A DNA stretch of 64,000 bases from Clostridia bacterium (GCA_017410375.1 JAFQQW010000051.1:12524-76523), one strand, 5' to 3'; counted from the stretch's first letter, positions 28,340-61,500 are shown. Numbers and translations: made by a program. The notes: a model not told the origin generated them from the letters alone.

Positions 28340-28418
28340 CCTTTCTTTTAGTTGTAATTCTAATTTCTACCGACATTATGCTTGCAAACAAGCTTGGTCG
28401 ATTAAAGTTTACATTTTT

Positions 28419-28427: not shown

Positions 28428-28435
28428 TTTTTCTA

Positions 28436-28483
28436 TTTACAAAGCACGAAAAAAGTTGTATAATACTAGATAAAAGTTATTAT
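28436..28483 (+). repeat. Left arm of a 48-bp inverted repeat; contains the AraC promoter
   Basis: TTTACA (28436-28441), 17 nt, TATAAT (28459-28464), then 19 nt of leader. 43 of 48 positions match the reverse complement of 29299-29346 (base-by-base comparison). Confidence 0.8.
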
Positions 28484-29299: not shown

Positions 29300-29346
29300 T
29301 AATAACTTCTATCTAATATTATACAACTTTTATCGTGCATTGGAAA
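29299..29346 (-). repeat. Right arm of the 48-bp inverted repeat; a full inward-facing promoter copy
   Basis: It begins at the last base of the AraC stop codon. The minus strand reads TTTCCA (29341-29346), 17 nt, TATAAT (29318-29323), pointing antisense into the AraC gene. Confidence 0.75.
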
Positions 29347-29368
29347 GATAAATACGTTAGAATAAAAT
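29340..29368 (+). promoter_or_regulatory. Candidate promoter of the MBL-fold gene (its -35 overlaps the antisense promoter -35)
   Basis: TTGGAA (29340-29345), 17 nt, TAAAAT (29363-29368). Confidence 0.4.
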
Positions 29369-37021: not shown

Positions 37022-37044
37022 TTTTAAAAAAAGGAGGTTTAATT

Positions 37045-38958
37045 ATGAGACTGATTTTAGCACAAATCGGCACAAACCAAACGGTTGCGCTTGCCGTAAA
37101 GGAAATTGTGCGTCTGATTAAAGCCATGGACAAAACAATCGCTTTGGATGTAAGACGCTACGATGAGAAAAAAGCAGACGTTAAAAATGCCTTATGGGTA
37201 GGTATTGACGGATCGGTAGAAAAAAGCAAAGACGACCATATCGTTATAAAGGTAAAAGATGCAGAGGGTATTATTACAGGTAGTAATGAAAGAAGTGTAC
37301 TTATCGCTGCATATCGTTTTATGACAGAGCTTGGTTGTCGCTTTTTGCGTCCCGGTCCTGCCGGAGAAAAAATTCCGGAACAGCCCCTTGATTATGCGGA
37401 TTTAACAGTAGATATTGACGAGTTGCCCAGCTACAGACACAGAGGTATTTGTATTGAAGGTTCTGTTGGTTATGAGCATGTGATAAACACCATTGAATGG
37501 TTGCCTAAAGTGGGCATGAACAGTTTCTATATTCAGTTTTTCACCCCCACAACCTTCTTTAAGCGCTATTACAGCAAATACTACGAAAACGAGCAGGATA
37601 AGGATTTTGGAAACAATCTCACCGATGCAGATATTGATGCAATGATGGAGCTTGTAAAAGATGAAATTCAGAAAAGAAGTCTGGTGCTACATGCAGTAGG
37701 ACACGGCTGGTCAAGTGCACCGTACGGCTTTGTTGCAACCGGCTGGGAAAAATATGAGGGTGAAATTGATGATAAAATGAGAGCAGCACTTGCTCTTTAC
37801 AAAGGCGAACGCAAGTTCTTCAACGATACGCCCATCAGCACCCAGCTTTGCTATTCCAATCCCGGTGTTATGGAGCATGTTACTGATTTCGCTGTAGAAT
37901 ACTGCAGAAAAAATCCACACATTCATTATCTTAGCTTTGGTATGGGTGACGGTGGCAGAAACCATTGTGAATGTGAAGAATGCATCAAAAAAACGCCTTC
38001 TGACCATTATGTGGATATGCTTAATTTGCTGGATATCAAGCTGGAAAAAGCGGGTCTTGATACAAAAATTGTATTTACCGTCTATGCAGACACCCTGTTT
38101 GCACCAAAACAGGAAAAACTGCGTGACAGCGGTCGTTTTTGTCTTAAATTTGCACCCATCGCCCGTTCTTTCTCGCAGTCTTATGACGAAATTGACCTTG
38201 ATAATCTGCCCGAAACCGCACCCTTTGTGTTAAATCAGGATATGGTGCGCAACACGGTAGAGCTGAATGTGGCATATCTTGAAAAATGGCAGAGAAATTA
38301 TAAAGGAGACGCATTTGTTTTTGATTATCACCTGATGTGGGACCACGATACCGACCCGGGTTATTATAATGTTTCAAAAATCATAAACCGAGATATGGCA
38401 GCCCTTGACAGAATCAAGCTCAACGGTATGTTAAGCTGTCAGTTACTCCGCTCGGCATTCCCGACAGGACTACCGACCTACACCATGGCAAAAACACTCT
38501 GGAACAAAAAATGCACCTTTGAAGAAATTAAAAACGATTATTTCACCACCGCCTTTGGCGAAGACGCAAAGCTGGTAGAAAACTATCTTTCTGAAATTTC
38601 AGACCTTGCCTGCCCACCCTTTGTGAGAGGCAACTTAAAGCTTTCTCCTGAAGAAGTGATTGAACGGTATACCAAGCTTAAAGAAGTCGTTATTGCATTC
38701 CGTGAAAAACATGCACAAAAAATGGCAGATGTATCTCCTGACTGGGAACATCTTTACATTCACACATTTATGATTCCGATATTTGCGGATGTGTATATGG
38801 CAAGATACAGCGGCGACGAAGATGCCGTGCAGGTTCATTCAGATGCGTTCCGTGCCTGCGTCCAAAAATATCAGCCTATGATTGACGATGTTTGCGACGA
38901 TTATCATATGAAATTTACCTTACTTAAAAAATATCTGGCACGGCATAAACCCGAATAA
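37045..38958 (+). CDS. DUF4838-like putative glycoside hydrolase, paralog A
   Basis: 637 aa. HRGICIEGSVGYEHV, LPKVGMNSFYIQF and a CECEECIKK motif. About 60% identical by eye to the product of 42201-44114, which has the same length. The family name is recalled from memory. Confidence 0.6.
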   Translation: MRLILAQIGTNQTVALAVKEIVRLIKAMDKTIALDVRRYDEKKADVKNALWVGIDGSVEKSKDDHIVIKVKDAEGIITGSNERSVLIAAYRFMTELGCRFLRPGPAGEKIPEQPLDYADLTVDIDELPSYRHRGICIEGSVGYEHVINTIEWLPKVGMNSFYIQFFTPTTFFKRYYSKYYENEQDKDFGNNLTDADIDAMMELVKDEIQKRSLVLHAVGHGWSSAPYGFVATGWEKYEGEIDDKMRAALALYKGERKFFNDTPISTQLCYSNPGVMEHVTDFAVEYCRKNPHIHYLSFGMGDGGRNHCECEECIKKTPSDHYVDMLNLLDIKLEKAGLDTKIVFTVYADTLFAPKQEKLRDSGRFCLKFAPIARSFSQSYDEIDLDNLPETAPFVLNQDMVRNTVELNVAYLEKWQRNYKGDAFVFDYHLMWDHDTDPGYYNVSKIINRDMAALDRIKLNGMLSCQLLRSAFPTGLPTYTMAKTLWNKKCTFEEIKNDYFTTAFGEDAKLVENYLSEISDLACPPFVRGNLKLSPEEVIERYTKLKEVVIAFREKHAQKMADVSPDWEHLYIHTFMIPIFADVYMARYSGDEDAVQVHSDAFRACVQKYQPMIDDVCDDYHMKFTLLKKYLARHKPE

Positions 38959-41785: not shown

Positions 41786-41918
41786 TAAAGTTCCCATGCT
41801 GTTGCTACCTTATATTATCACTTGTCTTTATGTTTGATACAAAGAGTCTGCGCACTTCGATTCTTAGCATTTTTTCTTTTTTTGTAATGAACATATCTCC
41901 ATAAATTTAAAGGTACAG

Positions 41919-42106
41919 CCCATAAGTTTCACGATTACTGTTAAACTTTCACGATTTGAATATAAAAAAATAACCGCCACCCAAAATTTAGCTCTCGGAT
42001 GGCGGTGTTTTTGTGTGTAAAATTATAACGAAAAGCCCGAAAAAGGCTTAAATAAAGGCAAAAATAAAAGGACAACAATTCTATCAAAACTGTTGTCCTT
42101 ATGTGG
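41919..42106 (+). repeat. Composite intergenic repeat, copy A (2 iteron-like units + two terminator hairpins)
   Basis: TTTCACGATT motifs at 41927 and 41947. Hairpin ACCGCCAcCC...GGaTGGCGGT + TTTTT (41973-42012). Hairpin AAGGACAACA...TGTTGTCCTT (42068-42100) has TTTTATTTTT on the minus strand. Roughly 85-90% identical by eye to copies B and C. Confidence 0.85.
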
Positions 42107-42200
42107 ATAAAGACCACAACTTTAATAGAAAGTTTCATCTTTGAACCACAAGGTTTCATTTTAAAGTCAATGATAAATTTCAATATGAAAATTAAAGAAA

Positions 42201-44114
42201 TTACAGATGGCGGTTTAAATACATTTCGAGTGTATTTCTACAGTAACTTGTTTCAGCGCAAACCATATCAATTATTTTTTCCGACTGTTTGACATAAGCA
42301 CGAAACTTTTCTTTCAAAGCAGGAACTTTTTCCTTTTCACCGCTGTATGCGGCAATGTATGCATCTGCAAGAATATCGGTAAGCATTGCATGGACAGCTA
42401 AATATTGCCATTCCTTTGACAAGTCCCGGTACCGTTTAATATATTTTTCGGAAAAATCCTTTATAACAGCTTTAACTTTTTTGCAACGTCCTACATATTC
42501 TTCTTTCTCAAAAAGATGAACCTGACCGCGAATAAAATTCGGACAGAAAAGCGCAGAAATTTCCGCAAGATATTGCGAAACCGCATCTGCATTATCCTGA
42601 AAAGCGGCTGTAAAATATTCATTCTTGACATCTTCAAAGCTTTTGCTCTTATTCCACAAAGCCGATGCCATACAATATTGGGGCAAGCCTGTCGGAAAAG
42701 CAGAACGAAGCAGTTGACAACTTACCATACCGTCAAGATTCAATTTTTCCAATGCAACCATATCTCTGTGCATAAGTTCTGCCACGTTATAGTATCCCGG
42801 ATCTGCGTGGTGGTCCCACATCAGATGATAATCAAAATCAAAAGCTTCGCCATTGTAGTGCTTTTGCCACTCTTTCAAATACGAAATGTTTATAGCGGTG
42901 CCGCATCTGTTAAACTCTTTGTTGCGTATATAAGGCGGAATTTTCGGCAAATTATCCAAATCAATTTCATCATAAAATTCAGAATACCAACGATTAATCG
43001 GTGCAAACATAAGCGTAAATCTGTCGGGATTTTTAAATTTTTCCTTTTCAGGTGCAAACAACAAATCCACATATATCAGAAAAACAATTTTGGTATCAAT
43101 GCCTGCTAAGCTCAGCTTTTCATCCAGCATATTGAGCATATCCACATAATAGTCAGAGGGTCTTTTTTCAGCACATTTCTCACACTCACACTGATTAAGC
43201 GCCTCGTCTGCCAGCCAGAAATGCAAATAATCTACCGCTGGATGATTTTTACAGTACTCTACCACAGCATCCGTCATTTTATTTTGCACATATGGGTTGG
43301 AATAGCAAAGATTTGTGTTTTTCGGCACTCCGCCGAAAAATTCTCTTTTTCCATTTCTCAACGCAAGAATGTTTTTAACACTTTCATCTATCTCGCCCTC
43401 AAATTTCTCCCAGCCTGAATCATCAATGCCGAAAGGTGCACAATTCCATCCGTGTCCTACCGCATGATAAACAAGACCTCTTGTTTCTATTTCGCACAAA
43501 AGCGAGTCAATCATCGCATCAATGTCCCGGTTTGGAATTTCATTGCCGAAGTCACGGTCTTTGCTATCTTTATAAAACTTTTCATAATACTTTCGGAAGA
43601 AAATGCCGGGAGTGGAAAACTGTGTGAAGAAAGCACTCATTCCCACTTTAGGAAGCCAGTCAATGGTATTAAAAACATGCTCATACCCAACCGCTCCTTC
43701 AATACAAATACCTCTGTGATTATAGCTTGGTGTTTCTTGTACGTCTGCTGAAACATCTGCATAATCAAGTGTCCGTTTTGGAATTTTTTCACCGTCTGTG
43801 CCGGGATAAAGATATCTGCATCCCATCTCGTACATAAACCGATATGCCGCAATAAGAACACTTCGTTCATTTGCACCGGTTATTATACCTGCACCATTTT
43901 TGACTCTGATAAAAATGCCGTCTTTCTTTTGGTCATATTTCATAGAGCCGTCAAGCCCTACCCAAAGTGCATTTTTAACCGATTCATTCTTTTCGGGATA
44001 TTTTCTGACATCCAAAACAAGCGAGTTGTCCATTGTTTTAATCAGACGCATAATTTCTTTTACGGCAAATCTTATCGTTTGGTTATCCCCGATTTGTGCC
44101 AATATCAATCGCAT
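42201..44114 (-). CDS. DUF4838-like putative glycoside hydrolase, paralog B
   Basis: 637 aa. It starts MRLILAQIGDNQT (paralog A: MRLILAQIGTNQT) and has HRGICIEGAVGYEHV and a CECEKCAEK motif. GGAGGA SD. Confidence 0.6.
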   Translation of the reverse strand: MRLILAQIGDNQTIRFAVKEIMRLIKTMDNSLVLDVRKYPEKNESVKNALWVGLDGSMKYDQKKDGIFIRVKNGAGIITGANERSVLIAAYRFMYEMGCRYLYPGTDGEKIPKRTLDYADVSADVQETPSYNHRGICIEGAVGYEHVFNTIDWLPKVGMSAFFTQFSTPGIFFRKYYEKFYKDSKDRDFGNEIPNRDIDAMIDSLLCEIETRGLVYHAVGHGWNCAPFGIDDSGWEKFEGEIDESVKNILALRNGKREFFGGVPKNTNLCYSNPYVQNKMTDAVVEYCKNHPAVDYLHFWLADEALNQCECEKCAEKRPSDYYVDMLNMLDEKLSLAGIDTKIVFLIYVDLLFAPEKEKFKNPDRFTLMFAPINRWYSEFYDEIDLDNLPKIPPYIRNKEFNRCGTAINISYLKEWQKHYNGEAFDFDYHLMWDHHADPGYYNVAELMHRDMVALEKLNLDGMVSCQLLRSAFPTGLPQYCMASALWNKSKSFEDVKNEYFTAAFQDNADAVSQYLAEISALFCPNFIRGQVHLFEKEEYVGRCKKVKAVIKDFSEKYIKRYRDLSKEWQYLAVHAMLTDILADAYIAAYSGEKEKVPALKEKFRAYVKQSEKIIDMVCAETSYCRNTLEMYLNRHL

Positions 44115-44130
44115 ATCTATTCCTCCACTA

Positions 44131-44436
44131 TTAAGACTTAAATATATATAATGCCGTTTCGTAAGCTTTTAATTGTAACGAAACCTCTCTTCCCGTTCCG
44201 CTTTCTGAAGTGCCTGCTTTTTTCCAGGCTTTTTCTTCGCCGAAATCCAAAGTTCCCGAAAACCCTTTATCATTTGCAATCACGGCAAGAAAACGGTTGT
44301 CGCCATATAAGATGTACTCTGCATCACAGTAAATATGACACCCTGCTTCTGCTGCAATTTCTTTCAAATCGGCAACAGAAAGAAACGGAATGGTATTCAT
44401 AATAATTGTTCTGTCTTTTTCTTTTCTTTGTGCCAA
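44131..44436 (-). CDS. Small hypothetical protein (about 90-101 aa)
   Basis: The ORF fills the 16-nt/8-nt gaps between two operon genes. The start is uncertain (TTG 44436 or ATG 44400; neither has a well-spaced SD). No family recognised. Confidence 0.4.
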   Translation of the reverse strand: MAQRKEKDRTIIMNTIPFLSVADLKEIAAEAGCHIYCDAEYILYGDNRFLAVIANDKGFSGTLDFGEEKAWKKAGTSESGTGREVSLQLKAYETALYIFKS

Positions 44437-44444
44437 TGTCCCCT

Positions 44445-45917
44445 TTACAAACTTTTGGTAGATACAAGATACATCATATTCCGAAGGTCATTTATAAGCC
44501 AAATCCATCTGCCTTTTACCTCCTTGGGAGTGTGGCTTAACGAGCGCAGAATTTCATCTGCCTGATTAAAATATTCCTCCAACAATGCCATTTTTCGGCT
44601 TTCATCATAAGTAAGTGCCTTTTCTCTGAAATTCGGGTCATCTGTCAGTTTTTCAAGCGGCTGACGGGAAAGGGGCATAGCCTTCACCCGTTCACCCAAC
44701 ATAAGCATACGACCCTTGATATACAAATTTCGCCAGCACAAAGCCATTCCCGTACCACCATACAACGGATCAAGGGTTCCGGCATAAAATTTGTCTATGG
44801 ACAAATTAAGATTTACTTTTCCCAATCCGCAAGCCTCTTCAAATGCCAGATAATTTGCTTCGTTGGGCGGTGCAAGAAAAGATTCTTCCCCGAATATGCT
44901 TACACCGTTTACATTGTGTTTTCTTGCTTCTGTAACCAACTGCCATATAAGCTCCACACCCCAATCGGCAGACCCGAGTATAGAATACTGACTGCCTGCG
45001 TGTACACGCAAAATGTTATCGGCTTTTGGGGTATAAATATTCTCCGTCCAACAATCTGTTGCATAATCGCCGATTGCTCTGTCGCCTGCCCACTGCAAAA
45101 TGGCATCATCCGGCAAGGCAGACAACAGTTTTCGATCTTCATCGGGCATCGATTGCCAGTTGCCGTCAACATATCCACCTTTAGGATAAGCAAATCCCGA
45201 ATAGGTTTCGCAAATCACCCACGCATCCGCCTTTTTCTTTTTGGATACATCAACTGCAACACGATAAGTATTTATCATATCCTCTACAGAATAATCCCGT
45301 TTTACATTTCTGTTTTTTCTGCGCTCTTCACAAAGCGGACAATGACAAACGCTGTAGTCACCCACTTCTACCTGAATACCGTCAACATCAATCTCATCAT
45401 AGAGCCACCCCAATGCCTCTTTAAACCATTCTAAATTTTCAGGTCTTGAAGGACACGCGAGAATGTTCATAGGCCCGAAAGGATAAGGATTTCCATTTTC
45501 ATCCACAGATTTATATTCCGGATGTTCCGTCAGCCATGTATTTAAAGAATATGGATGCGAACCAAATTTTCTGTCAATTCCGAGTGAAGCTTCTTCGGAA
45601 GGATCATAAAAAACACCTCCATAACTGAACGCACTTACCCCCGGCATAATTCTGACATTCTTTTTTCTGCCGTATTTTACAAGCTCCTTTAATTGGTTCA
45701 AACCGTCATTATGTGCGCGGAGTGCACCCCAGATCACAATTCCGTTGAAATGATGCGCACTTGCATAGTCCACCATTCGTTTGTAATCGCTTAAAAACGC
45801 CTCTCTTCTGAAATTTTTACCTGAGCAACCCATAATCTTGCTTTCAACAGATATATCCCAGTTCGAGCCTAAGTCCCATGTCCAAAGCACACGATATTTT
45901 GGTGTATTCACATTCAT
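44445..45917 (-). CDS. Putative glycoside-hydrolase-like TIM-barrel protein (family unassigned)
   Basis: 490 aa with an alternating beta/alpha pattern and a CHCPLCEERRKN motif, as in the other CxCxxC proteins of this locus. AGGAGGA abuts ATG 45917, so GTG 45911 may be the real start. Confidence 0.55.
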   Translation of the reverse strand: MNVNTPKYRVLWTWDLGSNWDISVESKIMGCSGKNFRREAFLSDYKRMVDYASAHHFNGIVIWGALRAHNDGLNQLKELVKYGRKKNVRIMPGVSAFSYGGVFYDPSEEASLGIDRKFGSHPYSLNTWLTEHPEYKSVDENGNPYPFGPMNILACPSRPENLEWFKEALGWLYDEIDVDGIQVEVGDYSVCHCPLCEERRKNRNVKRDYSVEDMINTYRVAVDVSKKKKADAWVICETYSGFAYPKGGYVDGNWQSMPDEDRKLLSALPDDAILQWAGDRAIGDYATDCWTENIYTPKADNILRVHAGSQYSILGSADWGVELIWQLVTEARKHNVNGVSIFGEESFLAPPNEANYLAFEEACGLGKVNLNLSIDKFYAGTLDPLYGGTGMALCWRNLYIKGRMLMLGERVKAMPLSRQPLEKLTDDPNFREKALTYDESRKMALLEEYFNQADEILRSLSHTPKEVKGRWIWLINDLRNMMYLVSTKSL

Positions 45918-46016
45918 TCCTCCTACAACAACACTTTTACGAGCAGCATTTTTATTTTATTATATTTACATTTCCATCTTAGTTCCTTGATAATTTTGAT
46001 TTATTGTAGCACAATT

Positions 46017-46069
46017 TTGACTTTTCTTTTTCTGTTTCCGTTGACTTTTCTTTTTGGATATTATATAAT
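46017..46069 (+). promoter_or_regulatory. Consensus promoter of the AraC gene, with a 15-bp direct repeat
   Basis: TTGACT (46041-46046), 17 nt, TATAAT (46064-46069). TTGACTTTTCTTTTT occurs twice (46017-46031 and 46041-46055). Confidence 0.55.
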
Positions 46070-46111
46070 AGCATCAACAAAGTATTCACCACTACATGAC
46101 AGGAGTTAAAC

Positions 46112-46942
46112 ATGAATCCTTTAACGCAATACGAAAAAAGTAATTTCCAAAAACAAAATTCCCCAATCCTTTTTAGTATTTGGCAAGAAAGAGGTTATTT
46201 CAGTGCGCATTGGCATGAACACACCGAAATTCTTTTTTTTAAGACTAACGGCTATAAAGTCACTGTAAACGGAACTACCTACGAAACCCAAAAAGGCGAT
46301 ATGCTGCTCATTAACGGCTATGAGCCTCATTCCTCGGTACGCCTGGAGGATGAAACCATTTTTTACGTACTCCGAATCAATACTTCCTTTTTAGCTGATG
46401 CCTCCTTTCAGAATTATTCCTTTCCCACACGCATACAAGGTGATCACGTCATTCGGGACTATTTTGACAAGTTGTGCGAGGAAAGCACACTGCAAGAGCC
46501 CGGGTATGAACTGGAATTAAAAGGAATCACTTACAGGCTTTTGTGCCACTTACTCAGAAACTATAAATCAGGGCAATTATCCCCAGAAGAGATTTCCCTG
46601 AAACAAAATAAATTGCGGAAAATTAACAGCATTTTAGAGTACATCGCCGCCCACTATTCCAATCCGCTTACCACCGCCGATCTGGCAAAGCAGTTTCATT
46701 TGAATGAGCAGTATTTTTGCCGCTATTTTAAAAAGGAAACGGGTCAGTCGGTCACCGGCTACATCAATCAGTATCGCTCGGAAATAGCCGCATCATTTTT
46801 AAAGGAATCCGATTACAGCATTACCGAAATTGCACTATTGGTCGGTTTTACCGATTCCAACTATTTCGCCAGAATTTTCAAAAAATATACCGGAGTTTCC
46901 CCGAGAGAGTATAAAAAAACACTTGGCATTCATTTAATTTAA
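46112..46942 (+). CDS. AraC-family regulator
   Basis: Cupin-like N-terminus (HWHEHTEILFFKTNG) and C-terminal AraC HTH (NYFARIFKKYTGVSPREY). Confidence 0.85.
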   Translation: MNPLTQYEKSNFQKQNSPILFSIWQERGYFSAHWHEHTEILFFKTNGYKVTVNGTTYETQKGDMLLINGYEPHSSVRLEDETIFYVLRINTSFLADASFQNYSFPTRIQGDHVIRDYFDKLCEESTLQEPGYELELKGITYRLLCHLLRNYKSGQLSPEEISLKQNKLRKINSILEYIAAHYSNPLTTADLAKQFHLNEQYFCRYFKKETGQSVTGYINQYRSEIAASFLKESDYSITEIALLVGFTDSNYFARIFKKYTGVSPREYKKTLGIHLI

Positions 46943-46992
46943 AATCGGTCATTTATTAATAGCGACAGCACATAAAAAGCATCTACCTACTC

Positions 46993-47232
46993 AAAAATTT
47001 GACGATTATATAAAAATTTCACGACTACCCCATAAGTTTCACGATTACTGCAAAGTTTTCACGAATATTATAAAATTTCACGATTTGTTTATAAAAAATA
47101 ACCGCTACCCGGAATTTTACGCTCGGATAGCGGTGTTTTTGTATGTAAAATTATAATGAGAAGCCAGAAAAAGGCTTAAATAAAGGCAAAAATAAAAGGA
47201 CAACATCTCACAAAATTGTTGTCCTTATGTGG
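46993..47232 (+). repeat. Composite intergenic repeat, copy B (5 iteron-like units + two terminator hairpins)
   Basis: TT(T/G)(C/A)ACGA cores begin at 46999, 47018, 47038, 47058 and 47077 (spacing 19-20 bp). Hairpin ACCGCTA...TAGCGGT (47101-47134) + TTTTT. Hairpin AAGGACAACA...TGTTGTCCTT ends at about 47226. Confidence 0.85.
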
Positions 47233-47372
47233 GGCACGGTGACTCTGCGTTTCGCATTTCTTCGGGCGACCTCGTCGCCGGCGAAGAAATTTGTTCACTC
47301 GAGACACGACAGTCCATCAGTTTGGTATTTTTCAAAAATGTTATCAGCAACATATATGCTACATAACGCATC

Positions 47373-48350
47373 CTATCTAGTGCGTGAGCGATCGGCACTA
47401 CTCCATTCATTATAAATCTTCTCTGCAGGGCGCCCCTTTATCGGCCACCGACGGTCACCGAAGGGACGGTCGACCTGCTCGTCCCACTTCCACCAATAAA
47501 GACCGTACCACCAAGGCTCGCTTTCAAACATTTCAATAAACATTGCAAGATAATCGGCCTGCTCTTCGGGCGGAAGATTGCTTCCAAATTCTCCGAAGAG
47601 AATGGGCTTTTCATATATTTCGGCAACTCTTCTGAAACGGTGGAGCTGCGGAAGGAAATCTTCCTTTCTTTCCTCTTTTGTGAGACCGAGAATAGCGGCA
47701 GAATGATAGCAAGAAAGGGAAAGAAAATCCAAATCGTAAAACCAATGGTTTTTATCGTTTAAAACTTTTTCATAATCTATTATTCCCGTATGGGTAGTGT
47801 GGCAGGAGGTAACGGGTCCGCTGTAAACGGCACGCACCTTTTCTATCAGATTTTTCCAATAGTCGTTATAGTCAACAAGACGGTCAAGCTCACTGTCAAT
47901 ACAGTATATCTCGGCACCAGTTTTTTCTGCAATTTTTGCATAATAAACGGCGCGCTCGGTCATAGACGTAAACCAATCGGAAAGCTCGGTACGGATAAGA
48001 CCGGGTATACGTTTTCCCGTGTGATCCGCTTTCGGGAACCATATACCAAGTCTACCGGAGCCGTCAAGAGTTTCTAACATAGGACGTAGCTGAACCTTAA
48101 GTCCTAAACTATGCAAGTAGTCTATCATTTCCATAACTTCCAAATCTGAGGGTGTCATAACAAAATCCTTAAACTGCTTTACCGAATAGGTATGTTCCTG
48201 ATATACAGTCACAACAAGCACCACCCAATCGGCACCCGATTCCTTTATGGCTCTCGCTTCAGCCTTAGCTTCCTCGGTAGAAAACCAACCATTTTTTGCA
48301 CGAAATCCGAAAGTAACCCCAAGATGCCAGTTGCTAAATATATTATTCAT
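47373..48350 (-). CDS. Clan GH-A-like TIM-barrel glycoside hydrolase (GH113/GH5-like), small
   Basis: 325 aa. GADWVVLVV, IDSELD and FGEFGS blocks fit an acid/base Glu and a nucleophile Glu on strands 4 and 7. AAAGGAG SD. Confidence 0.5.
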   Translation of the reverse strand: MNNIFSNWHLGVTFGFRAKNGWFSTEEAKAEARAIKESGADWVVLVVTVYQEHTYSVKQFKDFVMTPSDLEVMEMIDYLHSLGLKVQLRPMLETLDGSGRLGIWFPKADHTGKRIPGLIRTELSDWFTSMTERAVYYAKIAEKTGAEIYCIDSELDRLVDYNDYWKNLIEKVRAVYSGPVTSCHTTHTGIIDYEKVLNDKNHWFYDLDFLSLSCYHSAAILGLTKEERKEDFLPQLHRFRRVAEIYEKPILFGEFGSNLPPEEQADYLAMFIEMFESEPWWYGLYWWKWDEQVDRPFGDRRWPIKGRPAEKIYNEWSSADRSRTR

Positions 48351-48503
48351 TTCACTTCTCCTTTGTTTTTTTATTTCATTATAGCTTCAATATAAATTTT
48401 ATCATACATATCAATTACCGGAACATCATATTCTTCCAGGATGTGATTTCAAAGGTGTACACGCCACCCTCGGGGATGCAGGAAGAAATATAAACAAATG
48501 TAT

Positions 48504-49445
48504 TCACGCTTCAAGTCCCTCCAGTAAGCCTTTTAAATAGCCAATGGCATACAATCTGCCCAACGCTGTATAGCCGTCTCCGTCTGTTTCGCCTGCCATA
48601 GCAGGAACATGATCTACACGGATGGGGACATTTATACCAAGACTTTGATAGAGTTTTAAAATTTTACCCATTTCAATTTCTCCGTTATCGTGGAATGTTT
48701 CACGAAAGCAGGTTTTGTTCCCTGTGGTATTTCTGAAATGGATAAAGAAAATTTTGTCACGAAGTTTTGGAATGATGTCATATAAATCTTCGCCCATCAT
48801 CAGGTAGGTTGCCTGACACATGGTAACACCAAGGTTTTTACTATCAACTATGTTGATAGCTTTTTTTATATTTTCATAATTTATCATTATTCGTTCAACC
48901 GTTCCTAACTTTTCCAATGGCGGATCATCAGGATGTAAGGCAAGCTTTATATTGAATTTTTCAGCATATGGAATTGCAGCTTTTATAAAGTATTCATAGT
49001 TATTCCATAATTCTGTTGCAGTTATTTTTTTGTCAACTTCTTTAAAGTCACTCAAATCAAATCCGGTAACCAAAGCACCACCGCGTTCTTCGATGCTATC
49101 CGACGTCCTCAGCCATCCAATATGTGCCATCCAGTTAAAGCAAATGGTGCGAATGTCGAGCTTGTCCATATACTCAAACATTTTAATTACTTTTTCAATG
49201 CATGCATCACGATATTCATCGCCAATTTTGATGTGGTCATGTAATTCATTGGGCATTGGCTCTATAACAATTGGTTTTATCCCAAAATCGACAAAATCCT
49301 TATATACCTTTTCCCAATGCGAAAAATCTGAAATATCAAATTCTGTGTCCTCAGGCAAGCGGATAACACCGTGTTCTACGCCGCACTGTTTTGCATAGTC
49401 CCATGTCATATCGTGACTGCTCTTAAAGTAATCTGTTAAAATCAT
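48504..49445 (-). CDS. Mannonate-dehydratase (UxuA)-family protein
   Basis: ICFNWMAHIGWLRT resembles the UxuA block CYNFMPV.DWTRT. The layout is xylose-isomerase-like TIM barrel. 313 aa and AT-rich. Confidence 0.55.
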   Translation of the reverse strand: MILTDYFKSSHDMTWDYAKQCGVEHGVIRLPEDTEFDISDFSHWEKVYKDFVDFGIKPIVIEPMPNELHDHIKIGDEYRDACIEKVIKMFEYMDKLDIRTICFNWMAHIGWLRTSDSIEERGGALVTGFDLSDFKEVDKKITATELWNNYEYFIKAAIPYAEKFNIKLALHPDDPPLEKLGTVERIMINYENIKKAINIVDSKNLGVTMCQATYLMMGEDLYDIIPKLRDKIFFIHFRNTTGNKTCFRETFHDNGEIEMGKILKLYQSLGINVPIRVDHVPAMAGETDGDGYTALGRLYAIGYLKGLLEGLEA

Positions 49446-49457
49446 AATTAAACCTCA

Positions 49458-51110
49458 TTACATAATCTTAAAAATTGTTCCGTATAATAAATTTTCAAAT
49501 TTTACTTTTTCGTCACCAACACTTATTTTTGTGCTGTCATCTTCCCAAATCTTAAATTCTTTTATGCTTGTGCCATTAAAAGAGATTTCTTTTTCTTTTA
49601 TTACAGTTGTACTCTTAAAGTCCCTTAACACTTTTTGCCAGCAATCCGACTTGTTTCTGATAAATCCAAGACTTACAGTCTTACCTTTTAAAATAAATAT
49701 ATATGCTTCATCATCAGAAAAATCTATACTTTCAAACTCTTCATTCTGAAAATCAATTTCCGAAACCATATCTGCAAGGGGTTTGAAATATTTATATAAA
49801 TTTTTCGATTCCACATATCTTTGGTCCCAATGCCATATATGTCCGCATGACGCACTCCCCAAAAAAACCGGGGTATAAACACAATCCACAAATATAATTC
49901 CTCTGTCATCACATGAGTAATATTTAAACTCGCCACTATGATTGTTATTGACAGCACCCGTTTCTGCCACTATAAATGGCATGGTGTCATCTTTAATCAT
50001 CTTCATTCCTTCTTGTATTACTTCAACGGGATGTCTTGTAGTATCAATATATTTTCCACCCTGGTCAAGATATCGATGCATCTGCTTAAAATCACATTTC
50101 CCCCACGGGAACTCATTATACACATCAAGAGTTTCCTCACAGTCTAAACTTCCGTTTGAATTTACAACTAAGTGGTCAGGAAAAAGCTTCTTAACCTTCG
50201 GAAGCATTTCTTCATTCCATTTTATAATATTTCCACTTTCTTCTCCCATGGCATTCATCTCATTCCAAAGCTCAATCGCAAAAATTACGGTATCTCCCGC
50301 ATATCTTTTTGCATATTCCTCCACTTTTTTAAGCCATTCTTTTTTCCACTTATCTTCTGTGAGCCATTCTTTTGCAGAAGAGCATTTTTCACCATTTAAA
50401 TAGAAATTTTTATTAAACATTTCGAAAATATAACTATTTTCTGATTTGTCGTAGTAAAACCATCTGAACTGCTCCAATGTGATTTTCAATTTAATCCGGT
50501 ATTTTTTTGCCATCTCTACAATCATGTCAAGCTTGGCAAACTGTTCCCACTTATACTCATCGGCATTTTGGGTATCAGGTGAAAAATATGGATGTCCTAC
50601 CCATATTCTTACAAGATTAACACCGTTTTCCGCACATTTTTTAAACCAACGCTCGTATTGTCGTAATCCCATATAATTAAACTTACCACTAAGACCAAAC
50701 TCTTTCCCATTTGACACTCCGCAAGCCCTTGGAAATGCCAGGTTTACACCAATAGGATAAAAATCTTTTCCGGATGAATAGGAAAAATATCGTCTGTCCT
50801 TCTTGCTGACTTCGATATACCCATCATCAATATTCTCTTCTGCAACAAATTCTTCATTTTTGCTCTCTCCGGATTCAAAAGTTATCTGCAAAATATATTT
50901 GCCTTTACTTTTTAGCGTAAATCTTATTTTATGACAAATGTCTCCCTCCGGATAAAGATGTTCAATTCCCTCGTTATCATATTCAATTCGCACAGGTTGA
51001 TATTCATACGAAAAAAGTTCTATCACTTTTTTATTTTCATCAACAAGATAAATACTTTTAGGTTTTTCTTTCAATTCCCTTTCGATTCTTTCATAGCATT
51101 TAATTTTCAT
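49458..51110 (-). CDS. GH5-like (clan GH-A) glycoside hydrolase
   Basis: VNLVRIWVGHPYF and the acid/base block FAIELWNEMN. Start placed at the second ATG (51110) for SD spacing. Very AT-rich codon usage. Confidence 0.6.
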   Translation of the reverse strand: MKIKCYERIERELKEKPKSIYLVDENKKVIELFSYEYQPVRIEYDNEGIEHLYPEGDICHKIRFTLKSKGKYILQITFESGESKNEEFVAEENIDDGYIEVSKKDRRYFSYSSGKDFYPIGVNLAFPRACGVSNGKEFGLSGKFNYMGLRQYERWFKKCAENGVNLVRIWVGHPYFSPDTQNADEYKWEQFAKLDMIVEMAKKYRIKLKITLEQFRWFYYDKSENSYIFEMFNKNFYLNGEKCSSAKEWLTEDKWKKEWLKKVEEYAKRYAGDTVIFAIELWNEMNAMGEESGNIIKWNEEMLPKVKKLFPDHLVVNSNGSLDCEETLDVYNEFPWGKCDFKQMHRYLDQGGKYIDTTRHPVEVIQEGMKMIKDDTMPFIVAETGAVNNNHSGEFKYYSCDDRGIIFVDCVYTPVFLGSASCGHIWHWDQRYVESKNLYKYFKPLADMVSEIDFQNEEFESIDFSDDEAYIFILKGKTVSLGFIRNKSDCWQKVLRDFKSTTVIKEKEISFNGTSIKEFKIWEDDSTKISVGDEKVKFENLLYGTIFKIM

Positions 51111-51168
51111 ATTCATACCTTCTTTTCTTTTTTTTCAGTGTAACATCAAAAAAAATCCATGTCAAGAA

Positions 51169-51185
51169 ATTTCATATTATGAAAT
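51169..51185. promoter_or_regulatory. 17-bp palindrome, candidate IclR operator
   Basis: ATTTCATAtTATGAAAT (8-1-8 perfect inverted repeat) lies immediately upstream of the -35 of the IclR promoter, in the divergent intergenic region. Confidence 0.4.
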
Positions 51186-51186
51186 A

Positions 51187-51215
51187 TTGAACTTTGAAAC
51201 AATTTGTGATATAAT
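51187..51215 (+). promoter_or_regulatory. Promoter of the IclR gene
   Basis: TTGAAC (51187-51192), 17 nt, TGaTATAAT (TATAAT 51210-51215). AGGAGAG SD before ATG 51237. Confidence 0.55.
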
Positions 51216-51236
51216 TGGTGTCAGGAGAGTGATAGC

Positions 51237-52004
51237 ATGATAGGTTCTGTACAAAAAGCAGTAAAGATTCTCAATACAATTTCCGAAGAGAAAAACAGAC
51301 CGGTTTCTCTTTTGCATATAAACAAGATTACGGGAATCAACAAATCAACCTGCTCACACATAATATCCACACTTGAATCAGAAGGCTTTGTTAAAAAGAT
51401 TTCTCACTCAAAGGGTTATGTACTTGGCCCTGCAGCATATTGTCTTTCGAGACATGGAAGGTATGAAAATGAATTTGTATCCACATGCCACCCATTGATA
51501 AACTGGCTCCATAAAAAAACAGGATATTCTGTAATTCTTGCTGTAATTGAAGGAGGTCAGAAATATACAATAGATTATATTGAGACCGAAAAAATACTTC
51601 CAGAATCTTCAGAGATTATGCCCGACGACATATATCGCACCGCAACAGGCAGAATTATAATGGCAAATATGAATAAGGATGATATAAAAAGAGTTTTTGA
51701 AAAAAACGGAATTCCGCCTGAAGGACACTGGGATGAAGTTACATCCTTTGATACATTGAATGCTGAACTTTCGGAGATTGATAAAAACGGTATCGTACAG
51801 ACACACAATGCAAGAAATGATGGCAAAATTACACTTGGTTATGCTGCCGCCGTTTTCAGATATACCAAATGCGTAGGTGCAATCGGCATTGCTGTTTTAT
51901 GCACAAGAGAAGAGTATGATCATTTTGAGGAAAAAGAAAAGCTTATAAAGCAGAATATTATAAAAGCAAGAACAGAAATAGGCAGACGCCTTAAATATTC
52001 ATAG
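51237..52004 (+). CDS. IclR-family transcriptional regulator
   Basis: N-terminal winged HTH (VQKAVKILNTISEE...INKITGINKSTCSHIISTLESEGFVKK) and a C-terminal effector-binding domain. 255 aa. Confidence 0.8.
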   Translation: MIGSVQKAVKILNTISEEKNRPVSLLHINKITGINKSTCSHIISTLESEGFVKKISHSKGYVLGPAAYCLSRHGRYENEFVSTCHPLINWLHKKTGYSVILAVIEGGQKYTIDYIETEKILPESSEIMPDDIYRTATGRIIMANMNKDDIKRVFEKNGIPPEGHWDEVTSFDTLNAELSEIDKNGIVQTHNARNDGKITLGYAAAVFRYTKCVGAIGIAVLCTREEYDHFEEKEKLIKQNIIKARTEIGRRLKYS

Positions 52005-52182
52005 GCGAAGATGGTGTAAAATAAATTCAAAGCCATTTTAAAATTACTCCCTTTGCATCTTTTTTACCTTTACAATCAATATTGTGTCCACAACCCGGAA
52101 TTCAAACTTTTAGTATGTCCATAGATTAGGATTCACACTTTTAAAGTGTCCATTTTATAGGGTACATTTTATCACGTTTATT

Positions 52183-52406
52183 CAAAAATTTAACGATTAC
52201 CCCACAAGTTTCACGATTACTATAAAAGTTTCACGATTACTGTTAAAATTTCACGATTTGTTTATAAAAAAATAACCGCTACCCGAAAATTTGATCTCGG
52301 ATAGCGGTGTTTTTATATGTGAAAATATAACGAAAAACCTAGGAATGGCTTAAATAAAGGCAAAAATAAAAGGACAACATCTCACAAAATTGTTGTCCTT
52401 ATGTGT
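52183..52406 (+). repeat. Composite intergenic repeat, copy C (4 in-phase iteron-like units + degenerate ones upstream + two terminator hairpins)
   Basis: TT(A/C)ACGA cores begin at 52190, 52210, 52230 and 52250 (exact 20-bp phase). Degenerate TTCAAAC/TTCACAC/ATCACGT cores lie at 52101, 52132 and 52171. Hairpin ACCGCTA...TAGCGGT (52275-52308) + TTTT. The second hairpin ends at about 52400. Confidence 0.85.
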
Positions 52407-58533: not shown

Positions 58534-61500
58534 TCAGTTACATTCTACCGCTTCAAACAGTGGTTTTAATGAAGAGCCTTTGTTTACATCGCATTCCCAT
58601 ACAAACATCCTCTGATTTTCTTCAAGTATATATTTTTTACTGTTATTTACACTCACAATAACTTTATCGGCTTCTATATCTTTCATTATACCATTCTTAT
58701 ATGTTGCAATCAATACAAAGCAACAACAAGCTCCGTCATTTGTAAGTGTATATGTGTTGCCATTACGTATCAGCTGCAACCCTTTTTTACCGCTTGCGTT
58801 GGAAATATAAAGGTTTTCCCATTCATATGTCTTTAGTGCGCTGTTTGTTGTATTAACCAATCCCTGTTGTTCACCTACATACACACCGTTTACATATTCA
58901 GCCGTATTTGTACTGATTGAAATGCCGTCCACCGAAAAATCCAGACGGTCATCTTTATCTGAATTTATCGCACTGTTGACAATAGGTACATTGTCAAACA
59001 GCACATACCCCGACTCAACTACATCGGCTGTTGACGCATTATCCTTCACCTCAAGGTAACCGCTTAAATAACAACCGACTAACGCGTCATTTGCTGTAAC
59101 ATCTATCGGGATACTGCCTAAATCTTCATTGAGAATACAGTATTTGCTTTTACCTGCTGTAAGAGGCGAGGTCACTCTGCCCATAGCATAAAGTACGGAA
59201 AGAGATATCGGCTCAAAACTGTATTTATCGCCTGTTTCAAGCTCGATTGCCTGTGGTGCAATTGTGTATTCTTTGTCAAGCGTTCTGCTTTCAGTCAGAT
59301 ATTCGGTTTCCACATTAAATACAATTTTCTTGTTTCTATCAGAAACAGGGATGAAAAATTCGTACGGAAATTTGTCATCCACAACGGTTGAAATTTCATC
59401 TTCTCCCTCAAAATGCCATTTAAGTGTTGCTTTCACAATTCCGTTTTCACCATCACCACCGCCAACGGAAGCAATACCTTTATCATTTGTAAACGGATAC
59501 TGCTCAACAGACCGACCTCCCACAAAGATATACCCCATGTAGCTGCTTGGTTCGAGGGAAAGAGCGTACGCCTTTACATCATAGCCTTTATCGGTGTCAT
59601 AGCTGAAGCTGTAATTTCCGCTTGCATTTACGGTATAGCTTTGTGTGTATGTGTTTCCCTCATACATAAGACCTAAAGCGGTATTTTCTAAATTTGTTTG
59701 TGCCGTTTCATCGAATTTAATTTTTGCATATTCCGGAATATGAATGCCCGTACCACTTACTGCAACTGTTGCAATTCCTTTTTGGGAAATTGTAAGGGTA
59801 AGTTTGTTTTCGGCAACAATTGCCTCTGTTGTGTTTCCTGCTTTATCGTACACAGTCGCACTTGCACCCTCTTTGATACCAAGGTCGGTATTAAAAGTTA
59901 CGGTTACCGTTTCGTCACTATCTCCTGCATTGGTCAGCACGAATGCTGCTCTACCCTCGCTTCTGCCTGCAATCCAATCAATCTGCTTGGAAGAAACTTC
60001 TATCGTTCCTTCTTTTAGCCATGGCCACATTTGGTTTTCATCGTAAATTACGCCGGGTGCATGCCCGTATATCCTGTTGTTGAACCACGCATATCCTTGT
60101 GCTCTGGTGGTTGGAAAATCAACTTTTCCGTCGGATTTTACATACGCATTGGAAAAGAGATAATCATGAATTGCAGATAAGAACACAGGGATATGATGAA
60201 AATACAGACTTGTGGAGTCGAATGCTTCTGTAGGATAATTTTCAATTCCCGGAAGCATTGTATAATTTGAATAATAGTAACCGGGATAATTTGCAAATCT
60301 TCCTACCAATGAGGCGCGCGCCAAATCCATCATAAGTGTATCATCTGAAAGATACCCGAGTCTTAAGACATCTCCCGCCCATGTAGACAGGAAAATATTT
60401 CTTCCCTCTCTGCATGTAGAAAAGCGCTCTAATCCAAGTCCTGTTCTTGCAGTTACCCATGCAGGATATGCATCTTTTACATTTCTTACATTCAGATAAC
60501 CTTCTTCGTAACCCACAACATTGTATTCTGTATAGTCAGCACCATTTTCAAAAACGTTAGTACCTGTAGGCTCCATACATGCACCTCTGCGGTATCTTCT
60601 ATCACCCATAGACCACGCAGATGTTCTGTCTCGTTTATCCTGTGCAACCAGTTGCTCTGTTTTTTCAACGCGCATTTCCTCTTTGCTCTCCGGCATATCG
60701 GTTATACGGAGTGTTGGCAAAAATCGCCTTGCACCTTCCACTGCACCCTTTAAATACTTTTCGTCTCCCATAAACGCATAGGCATCAAGCTGTGCCTGGA
60801 ACTGCGGCGAGTATCCTGTACTCAAAAAAGCCTCCACATCAGGACCGCTTTCACTCGAAAGAAAAGCTCTTTTTTCTAAATATTCATCTGCGTTTTTCAC
60901 AGAAAGCGGATAATCGGAAGAATTGTTTGCGTGCTCATACCAAAAATAGTCAGTGGTATTTTTTAAATTTAAGCCTGCTGATTCCACCTCAGTGTTCATA
61001 AATCTGCTTTTCGCAATTTCTCTGTATATTGGCATCTGTCCGCGACTTAAAAGATATGCCCCCTCAAAGGTTGCGTTACCCATCGTAGCCTGCGTATAGG
61101 AAAGTTCTTTGTTTATAGGACCTTCCGATTGATTTTCAATAGAAAAGCCATTATGCATGTGACTGCCTCTTGTGAGCATATATGCCATGGAAGGAAGAGT
61201 TCGTCGCATTAAAAGGTCTTCATCCTCCGTAAGCATATAGCCTTGCAAATATACGAGACCGTTTGCATTTGTTGCCCAGGCAGAATCTTCTATGTTATAG
61301 TGGGCAAGCATATCAGAATCCCACCCGCTTGCTTCATCATCTTTCAAAAGATTCAGTATATTAAATGCCGCATCGGTCATAGAGGAATAATAATTATCGC
61401 GGTAATCATATACACCTCTTAAATCTTTTGCAACATGGCTGTAAGCATCATACCAACCCTGATTTTCTCCTTCTGCGGACACAACAGACAACGGTCTGTA

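Follow-up and report, generated by a model that had tools for sequence, protein, structure and literature searches.

The window analysed here, a 64-kb stretch of DNA from a rumen Clostridia MAG, contains three copies (A, B and C) of a composite repeat in the same orientation, and the original prediction held that such copies always stand between the 3′ end of a regulator gene and a convergent enzyme operon. The locus raises the question of whether the repeat is a dedicated device for separating operons or a member of a more widely dispersed family, and of what its hairpins would do in either case.

Architecture of the three copies

Copies A, B and C are 87–90% identical to one another and are linked by both pairwise blastn (E = 1e-53 to 1e-73) and nhmmer (E = 1e-64 to 1e-77); the 64-kb window has no copy beyond these three. 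All four predicted parts were found where they had been placed, in the common order 20-bp TTTCACGA units, hairpin 1, 33-nt spacer and hairpin 3. An additional small hairpin (hairpin 2, AAGCC-N7-GGCTT) sits between hairpins 1 and 3. The spacer, GGCTTAAATAAAGGCAAAAATAAAAGGACAACA, is the same in all three copies (chance expectation 0). While the predicted limits enclosed every part, they proved too short, as the repeat reaches further.

In copy A, the plus-strand unit array (41905–41963) comprises intact cores at 41927 and 41947 and a decayed unit at 41905–41923. It is followed by hairpin 1 (41973–42006, minus strand; ACCGCCACCC...GGATGGCGGT), which is terminator-like in both directions, by hairpin 2 (42033–42049, minus strand), the spacer (42045–42077) and hairpin 3 (42068–42105, minus strand; AAGGACAACA...TGTTGTCCTT), and the element ends sharply at 42098–42105 with CTTATGTG. 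A right-flank module (42102–42158) recurs with 88% identity over 57 bp beside a fourth copy, D, which lies outside the window.

Copy B carries five 20-bp units on the plus strand (46990–47092; cores at 46998, degenerate, and at 47017, 47037, 47057 and 47076), then, all on the minus strand, a T-A variant of hairpin 1 (47101–47134), hairpin 2 (47161–47177) and hairpin 3 with the end motif CTTATGTG (47196–47231), with the invariant spacer at 47173–47205. Its right end lies at 47316 and includes an extra structured module of ~85 bp that is common to copy D. This module is the 3′ half of a separate X element (GTCTCGAGTGAACAAA – hairpin – CGCAGAGTC; 47233–47320, minus strand) joined to copy B; the full-length X element occurs in copy D and in a second locus, L152, described below.

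The true start of copy C is 52018, where a 165-bp left module (L0; 52018–52182, minus strand) with three GTCCA(T/C)A motifs precedes the array; the same module is found in a fifth copy, E. On its minus strand, L0 retains a vestigial ribosome-binding site and an ATG (MALN...), and the stop codon of the IclR gene is at most 14 nt from its edge. Four 20-bp units follow on the plus strand (52186–52265; cores at 52189, degenerate, and at 52209, 52229 and 52249), and then hairpin 1 (52275–52308), a degenerate hairpin 2 (52335–52351; AAACC...GGCTT, about −0.5 kcal/mol) and hairpin 3 with CTTATGTG (52370–52405), all on the minus strand, with the invariant spacer at 52347–52379.

The window has 11 occurrences of the unit motif TTTCACGA, where 3.15 would be expected, and nine of them fall inside the three arrays, where the spacing is 20 bp in A, 20/20/19 bp in B and 20/20 bp in C. 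Further degenerate units lie on the left sides of B and C, and the number of units per copy varies from 1 to 6. Across 24 units, the 12-bp core (AAnTTTCACGAtT) is nearly constant and the linker diverges. This conservation suggests that the core is a putative binding site for some protein, in which case the 20-bp units would be bound with their cores kept and their linkers drifting. The unit motif was absent from the local promoter regions in which it was looked for.

At the gathering score, Rfam returned no match in the window, and its best sub-threshold hits (E at least 0.2) belonged to unrelated eukaryotic or viral families; in L152 and two further loci (L154 and L160) it detected nothing but tRNAs. 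The Rfam comparison proposed with the original prediction thus leaves the element without a match. Nor was a match returned by searches of GTDB and JGI or by blastn with 72,556 plasmid and 50,697 phage records as targets.

Hairpins and predicted termination

In a terminator scan of 12 kb, hairpins of the element took the three top ranks among terminator-like sites, with minus-strand hairpins 1 and 3 at the top, consistent with the predicted resemblance to intrinsic terminators. On that strand, both present a G+C-containing stem-loop followed by a U-tract. Hairpin 1 forms 11–14 contiguous pairs in copies A, B, C and E (−17.6 to −22.9 kcal/mol) ahead of the tail UAUUUUUUU with 7–8 U, and hairpin 3 folds at −11.8 to −16.6 kcal/mol ahead of UUAUUUUUG. 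In plus-strand RNA, hairpin 1 reaches −13 to −15 kcal/mol, contains a C.A mismatch and ends in GUUUUUG with 5 U. Copy A illustrates this asymmetry (14 pairs, −22.8 kcal/mol and the UAUUUUUUU tail on the minus strand; −12.9 kcal/mol and GUUUUUG on the plus strand), as do copies B (−17.6 minus, −14.2 plus) and C (−22.9 minus, −15.1 plus); the minus-strand hairpin 1 of copy D, with a C.A mismatch, folds at −13.0 kcal/mol. The difference between strands depends on G.U pairs and on the longer minus-strand U-tail.

Hairpin 1 had been cast as a plus-strand and hairpin 3 as a minus-strand terminator. Folding energies and U-tails uphold the terminator-like character of both but make hairpin 1 the stronger on the minus strand and the weaker on the plus strand, so that the element is predicted to be mainly a tandem minus-strand terminator. 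A transcription unit running into the core on the minus strand would be terminated there, and hairpin 1 would also weakly stop plus-strand transcripts. Where a copy lies between convergent units, it would insulate the regulator gene from read-through out of the induced enzyme operon. The element is most likely a transcription stop and not a special operon-boundary device.

The compensatory change noticed in hairpin 1 is real: one pair is C-G in copy A and T-A in copies B and C, and copy D holds the T-G intermediate. Over seven instances of the hairpin, 91.5% of cells were paired and three pairs had changed on both sides. None of 500 shuffles matched the observed paired fraction or covariation score, six equalled the number of doubly changed pairs, and slid controls were just 30–55% paired. 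Hairpin 1 is thus maintained by compensatory change, in agreement with the proposed selection on the stem.

Copies beyond the window and mosaic spread

We extended the contig beyond the window, covering ~85 kb of the source contig. Copy D lies on this contig in the same orientation, 16.8 kb to the right, 3′ of an operon with a sigma-factor and a 72-aa gene and upstream of a 760-aa gene; these genes are co-directional and no regulator adjoins. Another contig (L152) carries the fifth full copy (E) together with a rearranged one (F/G), directly 3′ of tRNA-His in a clpX-MBL-tRNA locus with a tRNA-Gly/Arg/His cluster. L152 comes from other samples and may represent another species than the window's, and its ClpX is also present in one sample of XIEF21-1, the same project as the window's. 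We also observed that short-read assemblies break at element copies. Across ~116 kb of lineage DNA, part of which was found via the repeat itself, we counted seven palindromes of the hairpin 1 type and eight of the hairpin 3/D type.

In a close relative (L154; ClpX 94%), the orthologous tRNA-His site lacks a segment of ~480 bp, and two more distant relatives carry other terminators there. At other places, L154 does carry family sequence, namely a truncated copy and a solo hairpin 1. Sequence comparison shows one copy as an apparent insertion relative to the close relative; in principle, a deletion could also explain the 'empty' site. Comparison of the filled with the empty site gave no clear target duplication: the left junction has ACATAAG and the right one ACACAAATAA, but because CACATAAG also begins every copy and the resident terminator, homology-driven insertion fits equally well. 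In other copies the left end is ragged.

Read on the minus strand, the core runs from the end CACATAAGG through hairpin 3 with its U-tract, hairpin 2, the spacer and hairpin 1 with its U-tract to the units, and L0, the X element and the right-flank module are optional additions on either side. These modules are joined in varying combinations, and sequence has been exchanged among copies. Variation is reticulate: C and E are 96.8% identical, yet E has an A-like loop in hairpin 3, and B and D share the same hairpin 1 loop. The internal hairpins are the only inverted repeats, and none pairs the repeat-unit end with the hairpin 3 end, so the element does not have the terminal inverted repeats of a MITE. 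The gene tables for ~116 kb of the lineage show no transposase, and in the annotated parts of ~100 kb neither a transposase nor an integrase was seen. Spread and homogenisation would have proceeded via recombination or gene conversion, or via a trans-acting factor, and classical transposition is probably not the route.

Copies of the family are scattered over unrelated loci. Copy D, copy E in a housekeeping/tRNA locus and the empty site in the relative bear out the view that it spread independently of its neighbours. The same copies contradict the claim that it always separates a regulator 3′ end from a convergent enzyme operon, since D lies between co-directional genes and E and F/G follow tRNA-His. 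A generic dispersed repeat was the outcome that the original prediction had named as speaking against it; dispersal is what we see, and the special operon-boundary reading is weakened accordingly, while a post hoc association with regulators persists.

Resemblance to known repeats and competing readings

We favour, with a probability of roughly 0.6, the reading that, in this uncultured rumen bacterium, A, B and C belong to a lineage-restricted family of small, mosaic, non-coding interspersed repeats of the BOX/SPRITE/BIME kind, with a tandem intrinsic terminator as its core. BOX of Streptococcus pneumoniae is a composite non-coding intergenic repeat with a variable tandem module, found mostly downstream of genes and without a transposase of its own (PMC3049150). 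SPRITE is a terminator-like interspersed repeat, a stem followed by a U-rich tract, which is enriched near CDS 3′ ends and thought to have been co-opted as a terminator; both families are described as streptococcal (PMC3049150). Our element is likened to them by description and not by sequence: it is also modular, non-coding and multi-copy with a tandem module of variable number, as is BOX, and its stems are also followed by a U-rich tract near gene 3′ ends, as in SPRITE. In contrast to the boxA–boxB(n)–boxC order, however, the variable 20-bp array is terminal, and the two ends of the element neither pair with each other, as boxA and boxC do, nor resemble TIRs. The boxB unit is ~45 bp long. 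Further differences from BOX are the two intrinsic-terminator hairpins in the core and the host, rumen Clostridia and not a streptococcus. Whereas SPRITE is one long hairpin, the element has three tandem hairpins, an array and optional modules.

The REP/BIME elements of Proteobacteria are extragenic mosaics of imperfect palindromes and short motifs. They typically lie where transcription units end or where two genes converge, and have been suggested to act in termination and in mRNA stability (PMC2817692, PMC3733652). Mosaic combination and extragenic 3′ location are seen here as well. Unlike REPs, the palindromes have no GTAG/CGTC head, their first letters being ACCGC and CACATAAG (GTAG is confined to the stem of some copies, and copy A has lost it), do not alternate in orientation and carry U-tracts, which makes them true terminator-like hairpins. 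No RAYT (Y1-transposase) gene was present in the available gene tables. The original statement that no element of this composition had been described is right as regards sequence but not as regards kind: BOX and SPRITE are described, so such repeats exist in Firmicutes (PMC3049150). The family adds a new case to a known kind of bacterial repeat.

The arrays also recall iterons of plasmid or phage origins and centromeres, with ~20-bp direct repeats in arrays of 2–6, a conserved core and a variable linker, but rep/par genes, DnaA boxes and other origin features do not adjoin them, and there are several chromosomal copies. A plasmid-type iteron origin or centromere was rejected on the CAZyme, regulator and tRNA genes in the neighbourhood and on the lack of a plasmid or phage match.

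A more specific role is that of a boundary or insulator dedicated to glycan-utilisation units, in which the regulator would bind the array at the 3′ end of its own gene and the double terminator would separate the convergent operon. The conserved unit core fits this proposal, as does the orientation of A, B, C and a truncated copy in L154, whose unit sides all face an AraC or IclR 3′ end; the truncated copy abuts its AraC gene, and the solo hairpin 1 of L154 coincides with the stop codon of an AraC gene. On the source contig, the element occupies three of four convergent junctions with a regulator and none of six without (Fisher ~0.03, a post hoc value from a window chosen for the pattern). 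This bias, together with the L154 matches at AraC 3′ ends, may point to a placement more specific than chance dispersal, and leaves a residual, post hoc link to regulator 3′ ends. Nevertheless, D, E and F/G have neither regulator nor glycan operon on their unit side, E lies behind a tRNA operon amid housekeeping genes, and the convergent AraC-260/esterase junction has no copy. Since the adjoining regulators come from different families (AraC, IclR), a single shared operator is improbable, and the unit motif is missing from local promoters. We regard this role as unlikely.

Rather poor odds also attach to the copies being passive relics, immobile and functionless, left when a single ancestral intergenic region underwent local segmental duplication. 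Four copies within 28 kb, and flanking DNA of differing length (L0 with its ribosome-binding site and ATG, half an X element) as expected from recombination-based copying, would suit such an origin. It is countered by the absence of nucleotide similarity between flanking genes, by the near-identity to C of the core of E at an unrelated locus, by the empty site in the close relative and by the constraint evident in the compensatory changes and the unit core.

Another reading, which we consider improbable, treats the copies as att-like recombination sites at the junctions of tandemly integrated modules, with the 20-bp units as arm-type recombinase-binding sites. Structured direct repeats in one orientation do part regulator-plus-operon modules of 5.1, 5.2 and 16.8 kb, copy E directly adjoins tRNA-His on its 3′ side, tRNA 3′ ends being classic integration sites, and the DNA 3′ of tRNA-His differs among five relatives. 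Yet entire elements are repeated and not a short core, the tRNA-His insert is non-coding and just ~480 bp long, and the element has no direct repeat derived from the tRNA. It also has no attC-type R/L boxes and no R″/L″–L′/R′ organisation, and the modules span 5–17 kb with their own promoters and regulators. An integron attC/att site was rejected, as gene tables (~85 kb of source contig, L152/L162 and L154) and Pfam scans (~85 kb of flanks, L152 and L154, covering not every window ORF at ~23–36 kb) yielded no integrase or recombinase.

Least probable by far is a small-RNA locus, with a short RNA ending at hairpin 1 or a type III antitoxin-like plus-strand array and terminator: the layout resembles the tandem repeats and terminator of ToxI/CptI, and a TATAAT/TATATT box is conserved in the minus-strand spacer, but there is no conserved −35 box, no promoter predicted in all copies, no promoter-like site common to all copies ahead of the arrays and no Rfam similarity. 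Type III toxin-antitoxin loci consist of a promoter, tandem repeats of ~34–45 nt, a terminator and a toxin ORF; this candidate was rejected, as the 20-nt units are far below the length of known antitoxin repeats and hairpin 1 is followed on the plus strand by hairpin 3 and the 3′ end of the convergent gene, with no toxin gene or other ORF.

Beyond the preferred reading of a mosaic, BOX/SPRITE/BIME-like family lies a bolder proposal, doubtful in our view. The array, with its core AAnTTTCACGAtT phased every two helical turns, may be the landing pad of a dedicated trans-acting protein, and the cassette a new non-autonomous 'terminator-iteron' element, devoid of TIRs or target duplications, whose new copies would be placed where transcription units end, with a preference for sites behind regulator genes. 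If this were true, 'terminator-iteron' cassettes would mark off the regulator-plus-operon modules of rumen Clostridia, insulate them and possibly shuffle them as well.

Architecture of the repeat and its surroundings

The three stretches of the original prediction lie where it placed them. Called here copies A (window ~41905-42158), B (46990-47320) and C (52018-52405), they share their parts in a common order and orientation when aligned, and pairwise blastn returned E values of 1e-53 to 1e-73. An HMM built from the copies found no additional copy within the 64-kb window. Read on the minus strand, the element runs from a sharp end, CACATAAGG, through hairpin 3 (hp3), UUAUUUUUG, hairpin 2 (hp2), a 33-nt spacer, hairpin 1 (hp1) and UAUUUUUUU into an array of 20-bp tandem units. 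The spacer string is the same in copies A, B and C (chance expectation 0). In these copies hp1 reads ACCGC(C/T)ACCC...GGAT(G/A)GCGGT, with an A-run and a T-run on its flanks and the C-G versus T-A difference described at the outset. The small hairpin hp2 (AAGCC-N7-GGCTT) was absent from the original parts list, and hp3 (AAGGACAACA...TGTTGTCCTT) is followed by a constant end, TTATGTG. We rejected the repeat as coding sequence, as it holds only short ORFs whose frame is not kept between copies.

The array is built on the octamer TTTCACGA, of which the window has 11 occurrences where 3.15 are expected; nine of these lie within the arrays at a spacing of 20/20/19 bp (TRF period 20). Among 24 units, selected by the requirement of a central ACGA, the core AAnTTTCACGAtT is nearly invariant and the 8-bp linker variable, a pattern that suggests selection on a putative binding site for a protein, repeated every two helical turns. 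Units of a given type occupy homologous positions in the different copies. A role of the motif as a local operator was discarded: it is not found in local promoter regions outside the arrays, and its 21 total matches at ≤2 mismatches are near the 15.7 expected by chance. To our knowledge, cre, the parS half-site GTTTCACG, Spo0A, Rex, LytTR and CodY offer no convincing fit to the units.

The sequence of the window recurs without change within a 246.8-kb metagenome scaffold (ENA ERZ28653904, XIEF21-1 scaffold_36), whose sample names suggest a ruminant gut origin. S-layer-homology proteins, sporulation genes in a related contig and the nearest GTDB relative by GH113 assign it to the Clostridia. 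The region is a series of glycan-degradation modules, each consisting of a minus-strand enzyme operon and a divergent AraC or IclR regulator. The neighbours of the copies are those first described, with AraC-254, AraC-276 and IclR-255 on the left (plus strand) and DUF4838, GH113 and GH28 on the right (minus strand) of copies A, B and C, respectively.

The window also holds other repeats. A 69-bp inverted repeat (28415-28483 and 29299-29367; 85.5%) surrounds the entire AraC-265 gene (28502-29299), and each arm carries a good predicted promoter (TTTACA or TTTCCA, 17 nt, TGTATAAT); antisense transcription from the right arm would therefore enter the AraC-265 3' end. Directly upstream of a GH2 gene (19543-22320) lies a 103-bp tandem duplication (19311-19521; 2.1 copies, 97%) whose unit contains TGGTATAAT, so the GH2 promoter region may be duplicated. 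Further pairs are inverted paralogous DUF4838 genes (37033-38468 versus 44126-42688; 66% nt), paralogous segments of two giant (>1600 aa), putative surface-protein genes (31088-33774 versus 59303-62052; 66-68% nt) and a 45-bp intergenic/3'-end repeat (16982-17026 versus 22425-22469; 93%).

Predicted termination by the hairpins

On the minus strand, hp1 folds at -17.6 to -22.9 kcal/mol (-13.0 in copy D, which lies outside the window) with 11-14 contiguous pairs including G.U and 7-8 U, while its plus-strand version reaches -13 to -15 kcal/mol with a C.A mismatch and 5 U. For hp3, minus-strand energies are -11.8 to -16.6 kcal/mol, and a U-tract follows on the minus strand only. In a scan of 12 kb, hp1 and hp3 read on the minus strand supplied the three top terminator-like sites. 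Judged by these energies, U-tails and scan ranks, the element is predicted to be chiefly a tandem minus-strand terminator, with hp1 as a weaker predicted stop for plus-strand transcripts. The proposal that the hairpins are terminators thus stands as a prediction, but its assignment of one hairpin to each strand does not, the strongest candidates being on the minus strand. Behind the three regulator genes, the scan returned no convincing plus-strand terminator besides hp1. GH113 already has a native hairpin and U-run ahead of the element, so the repeat copy is additional to these.

The compensatory change noted in hp1 extends to seven instances, in which 91.5% of cells are paired and three pairs are changed on both sides. 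Neither the paired fraction nor the covariation score was matched by any shuffle, the count of doubly changed pairs was matched by 6/500, and slid controls paired at 30-55%.

Further copies, an empty site and probable modes of spread

The contig was extended by one step per side to 79.5 kb, and one further locus added 6 kb. Copy D (4043-4284 of contig L148) lies 16.8 kb to the right of copy C in unchanged orientation, among co-directional minus-strand genes and with no adjacent regulator; a sigma-factor/72-aa operon lies upstream of it and a 760-aa gene 450 bp downstream. Its hp3 has lost the 5' arm through an 11-bp deletion, and its hp1 carries an intermediate T...G, which forms a G-U pair in plus-strand RNA only. 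Copies B and D have an additional ~85 bp on the right in common, and the right flank of copy A reappears 190 bp further right of copy D.

Contig L152 was found with a 65-aa peptide, the gene-caller translation of the shared right module; a six-frame 'polyprotein' of the repeat used as query found nothing among the matches listed. L152, which may derive from the same species as the window, carries housekeeping genes (yabP-yabQ-divIC-S1-truA-thrC-tig-clpP-clpX-MBL, followed by tRNA-Gly, -Arg and -His), and its ClpX also occurs in other samples of the XIEF21-1 project. Directly 3' of the tRNA-His CCA end sits copy E, a full copy with six units, which has a 165-bp left module, L0, in common with copy C. 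After it comes copy F/G, comprising a palindromic terminator, a full right module (97% identical to that of copy D), a perfect hp3 palindrome, 170 unrelated bases and a distal part with one unit and an hp1 variant whose inner stem is different yet complementary.

Orthologous loci of relatives were fetched with the L152 ClpX as a handle. In L154 (ClpX 94%), a palindromic terminator, CACATAAGTAAAAAGGACACC-TTTA-GGTGTCCTTTTTACTTATGTG, comes immediately after tRNA-His, with half a right module behind it; in the alignment, this site is without the ~480 bp comprising hp3, hp2, hp1, units and L0. The absence points to copy E as an insertion, a deletion in L154 being less likely. Insert and resident terminator have the same start, CACATAAG, which makes homology-driven insertion as likely as target duplication. 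Relatives with ClpX at 93% and 81-82% have other terminators after tRNA-His and no family member there. Although not picked for repeats, L154 contains two family members elsewhere, a truncated copy (two units and half of hp1) between convergent genes and a solo hp1-like terminator overlapping an AraC stop codon. Across all fetched loci (1.66 Mb), the core is confined to this lineage. With copies in unrelated loci and an empty site in L154, the view that the element spread independently of its neighbours is upheld.

No terminal inverted repeats and no clear target duplication were found at the repeat, and gene tables covering ~116 kb of the lineage list no transposase or recombinase. A classical MITE was rejected because terminal inverted repeats are absent. 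On the hp3 side, the element ends sharply against six different neighbours; its unit end is ragged, with copy A truncated and copies C and E continuing through L0 to a few bases short of a regulator stop codon. The copies vary in a reticulate manner: C and E agree at 96.8% in the core, E has an A-like hp3 loop, and B and D have one and the same hp1 loop. Taken with the mosaic joining of modules, these features point to probable spread by recombination or gene conversion, or by a trans factor, more than to classical transposition.

The expectation that the element always marks a regulator/operon boundary was not borne out: copies D, E and F/G lie elsewhere, and the 13-bp AraC-260/esterase junction has no copy. 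On the source contig, the element occupies three of four convergent junctions with a plus-side regulator versus none of six without (Fisher ~0.03, a post hoc value for a window chosen for the pattern). In L154, an unbiased relative, both family matches adjoin AraC 3' ends. The co-directional copies D, E and F/G all (3/3) present strong predicted terminators oriented towards incoming transcription. Plausibly, selection would keep strong terminators where read-through from an induced operon would go antisense into a regulator gene.

The right module, or X element, is structured and ~135 nt long. It is present in full in L148 (3907-4040, plus) and L152 (9959-10092, plus), as its 3' half at copy B (window 47233-47320, minus) and as its 5' half in L154 (7044-7115), with homologues in L159 (12326-12464) and L160 (12312-12451 and 12500-12639). 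It lies directly downstream of tRNA-His in four related genomes, and additional X elements adjoin repeat copies B and D. Pairing in its three hairpins is kept by compensatory change (between two lineages, both partners differ in 7/33 pairs), its single-stranded motifs GTTCGTYGA, GTCTCGAGYGAGCAAA and CGCAGAGTC are kept, and its single-sequence z-score is -7. Gene callers treat it as a 65-78 aa ORF. Rfam gave no match, and the element is a candidate for a structured RNA not yet described or for a tRNA-linked repeat. In L159 (12290-12520) and L160 (12270-12690), both with ClpX at 81-82%, tRNA-His is followed by a ~188-bp tandem repeat whose unit joins a terminator, the 3' end of tRNA-His in inverted orientation (TGGGGCGATTATAGGGA) and the X element. 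Perfect palindromic, bidirectional predicted terminators related to hp3, CACA(T/A)A..AAAAAGGA(C/T)ACC-loop-GG(T)(G/A)TCCTTTTT..TGTG, occur in L154 (6985-7029), L148 (3855-3891; window-equivalent 69626-69668) and L152 (9905-9947), with compensatory T-A/C-G stem differences between species.

Kind of element and consequences

The exact spacer 24-mer had no match in GTDB species representatives or JGI metagenomes; the organism is simply not represented there. A unit pair and a spacer 20-mer gave five IMG/VR matches, all due to chance and none with the remaining element. A triple unit pattern retrieved 73 metagenome loci, all of them unrelated 10- or 20-bp tandem repeats, in which nhmmer matched only the repeat-unit part, the remaining element being absent from all. 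The GH113 neighbour led to 66 GTDB loci, none carrying the repeat; the closest ('uncultured Eubacteriales') is 72% identical and not syntenic. Neither blastn of the repeat against plasmids and phages nor Rfam at gathering and E-value thresholds returned a match.

Elements that work similarly are known. BOX is a composite interspersed repeat with a variable tandem module in a Firmicute, and SPRITEs are interspersed repeats resembling Rho-independent terminators, clustered at CDS 3' ends (PMC3049150). BIMEs are by definition palindromic-unit mosaics at transcription-unit 3' ends (PMC2817692, PMC3733652). The present family, which we liken to streptococcal BOX and SPRITE by description, differs from BOX in being without pairing end modules, and from REP/BIME in having no GTAG/CGTC head and no RAYT gene in the available gene tables. 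Given these precedents and no sequence match in the collections searched, we assign it to a known kind, as a mosaic interspersed repeat that is specific to this lineage and contains predicted tandem terminators. The conserved unit core and the loose tie to regulator 3' ends leave room for more specific biology, but a more unusual protein-guided 'terminator-iteron' cassette strikes us as improbable.

Such a mosaic repeat matters in practice. Short-read assembly of rumen MAGs is interrupted at the copies: two Logan contigs terminate within copies, and assemblies of public runs break exactly at them (L003 corresponds to window 42109-47122; L149 ends in hp3 of copy C, window ~52385). The small 'proteins' P0001-P0004 (36, 65 and 78 aa) are spurious calls, translations of the repeat and neighbouring modules. 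Variation in unit number is a potential strain marker, and the compact tandem, partly bidirectional predicted terminator is a possible insulator part for Clostridia. If our reading is true, the family would represent an ordinary phenomenon in an unstudied lineage, namely small interspersed mosaic repeats co-opted as terminators.
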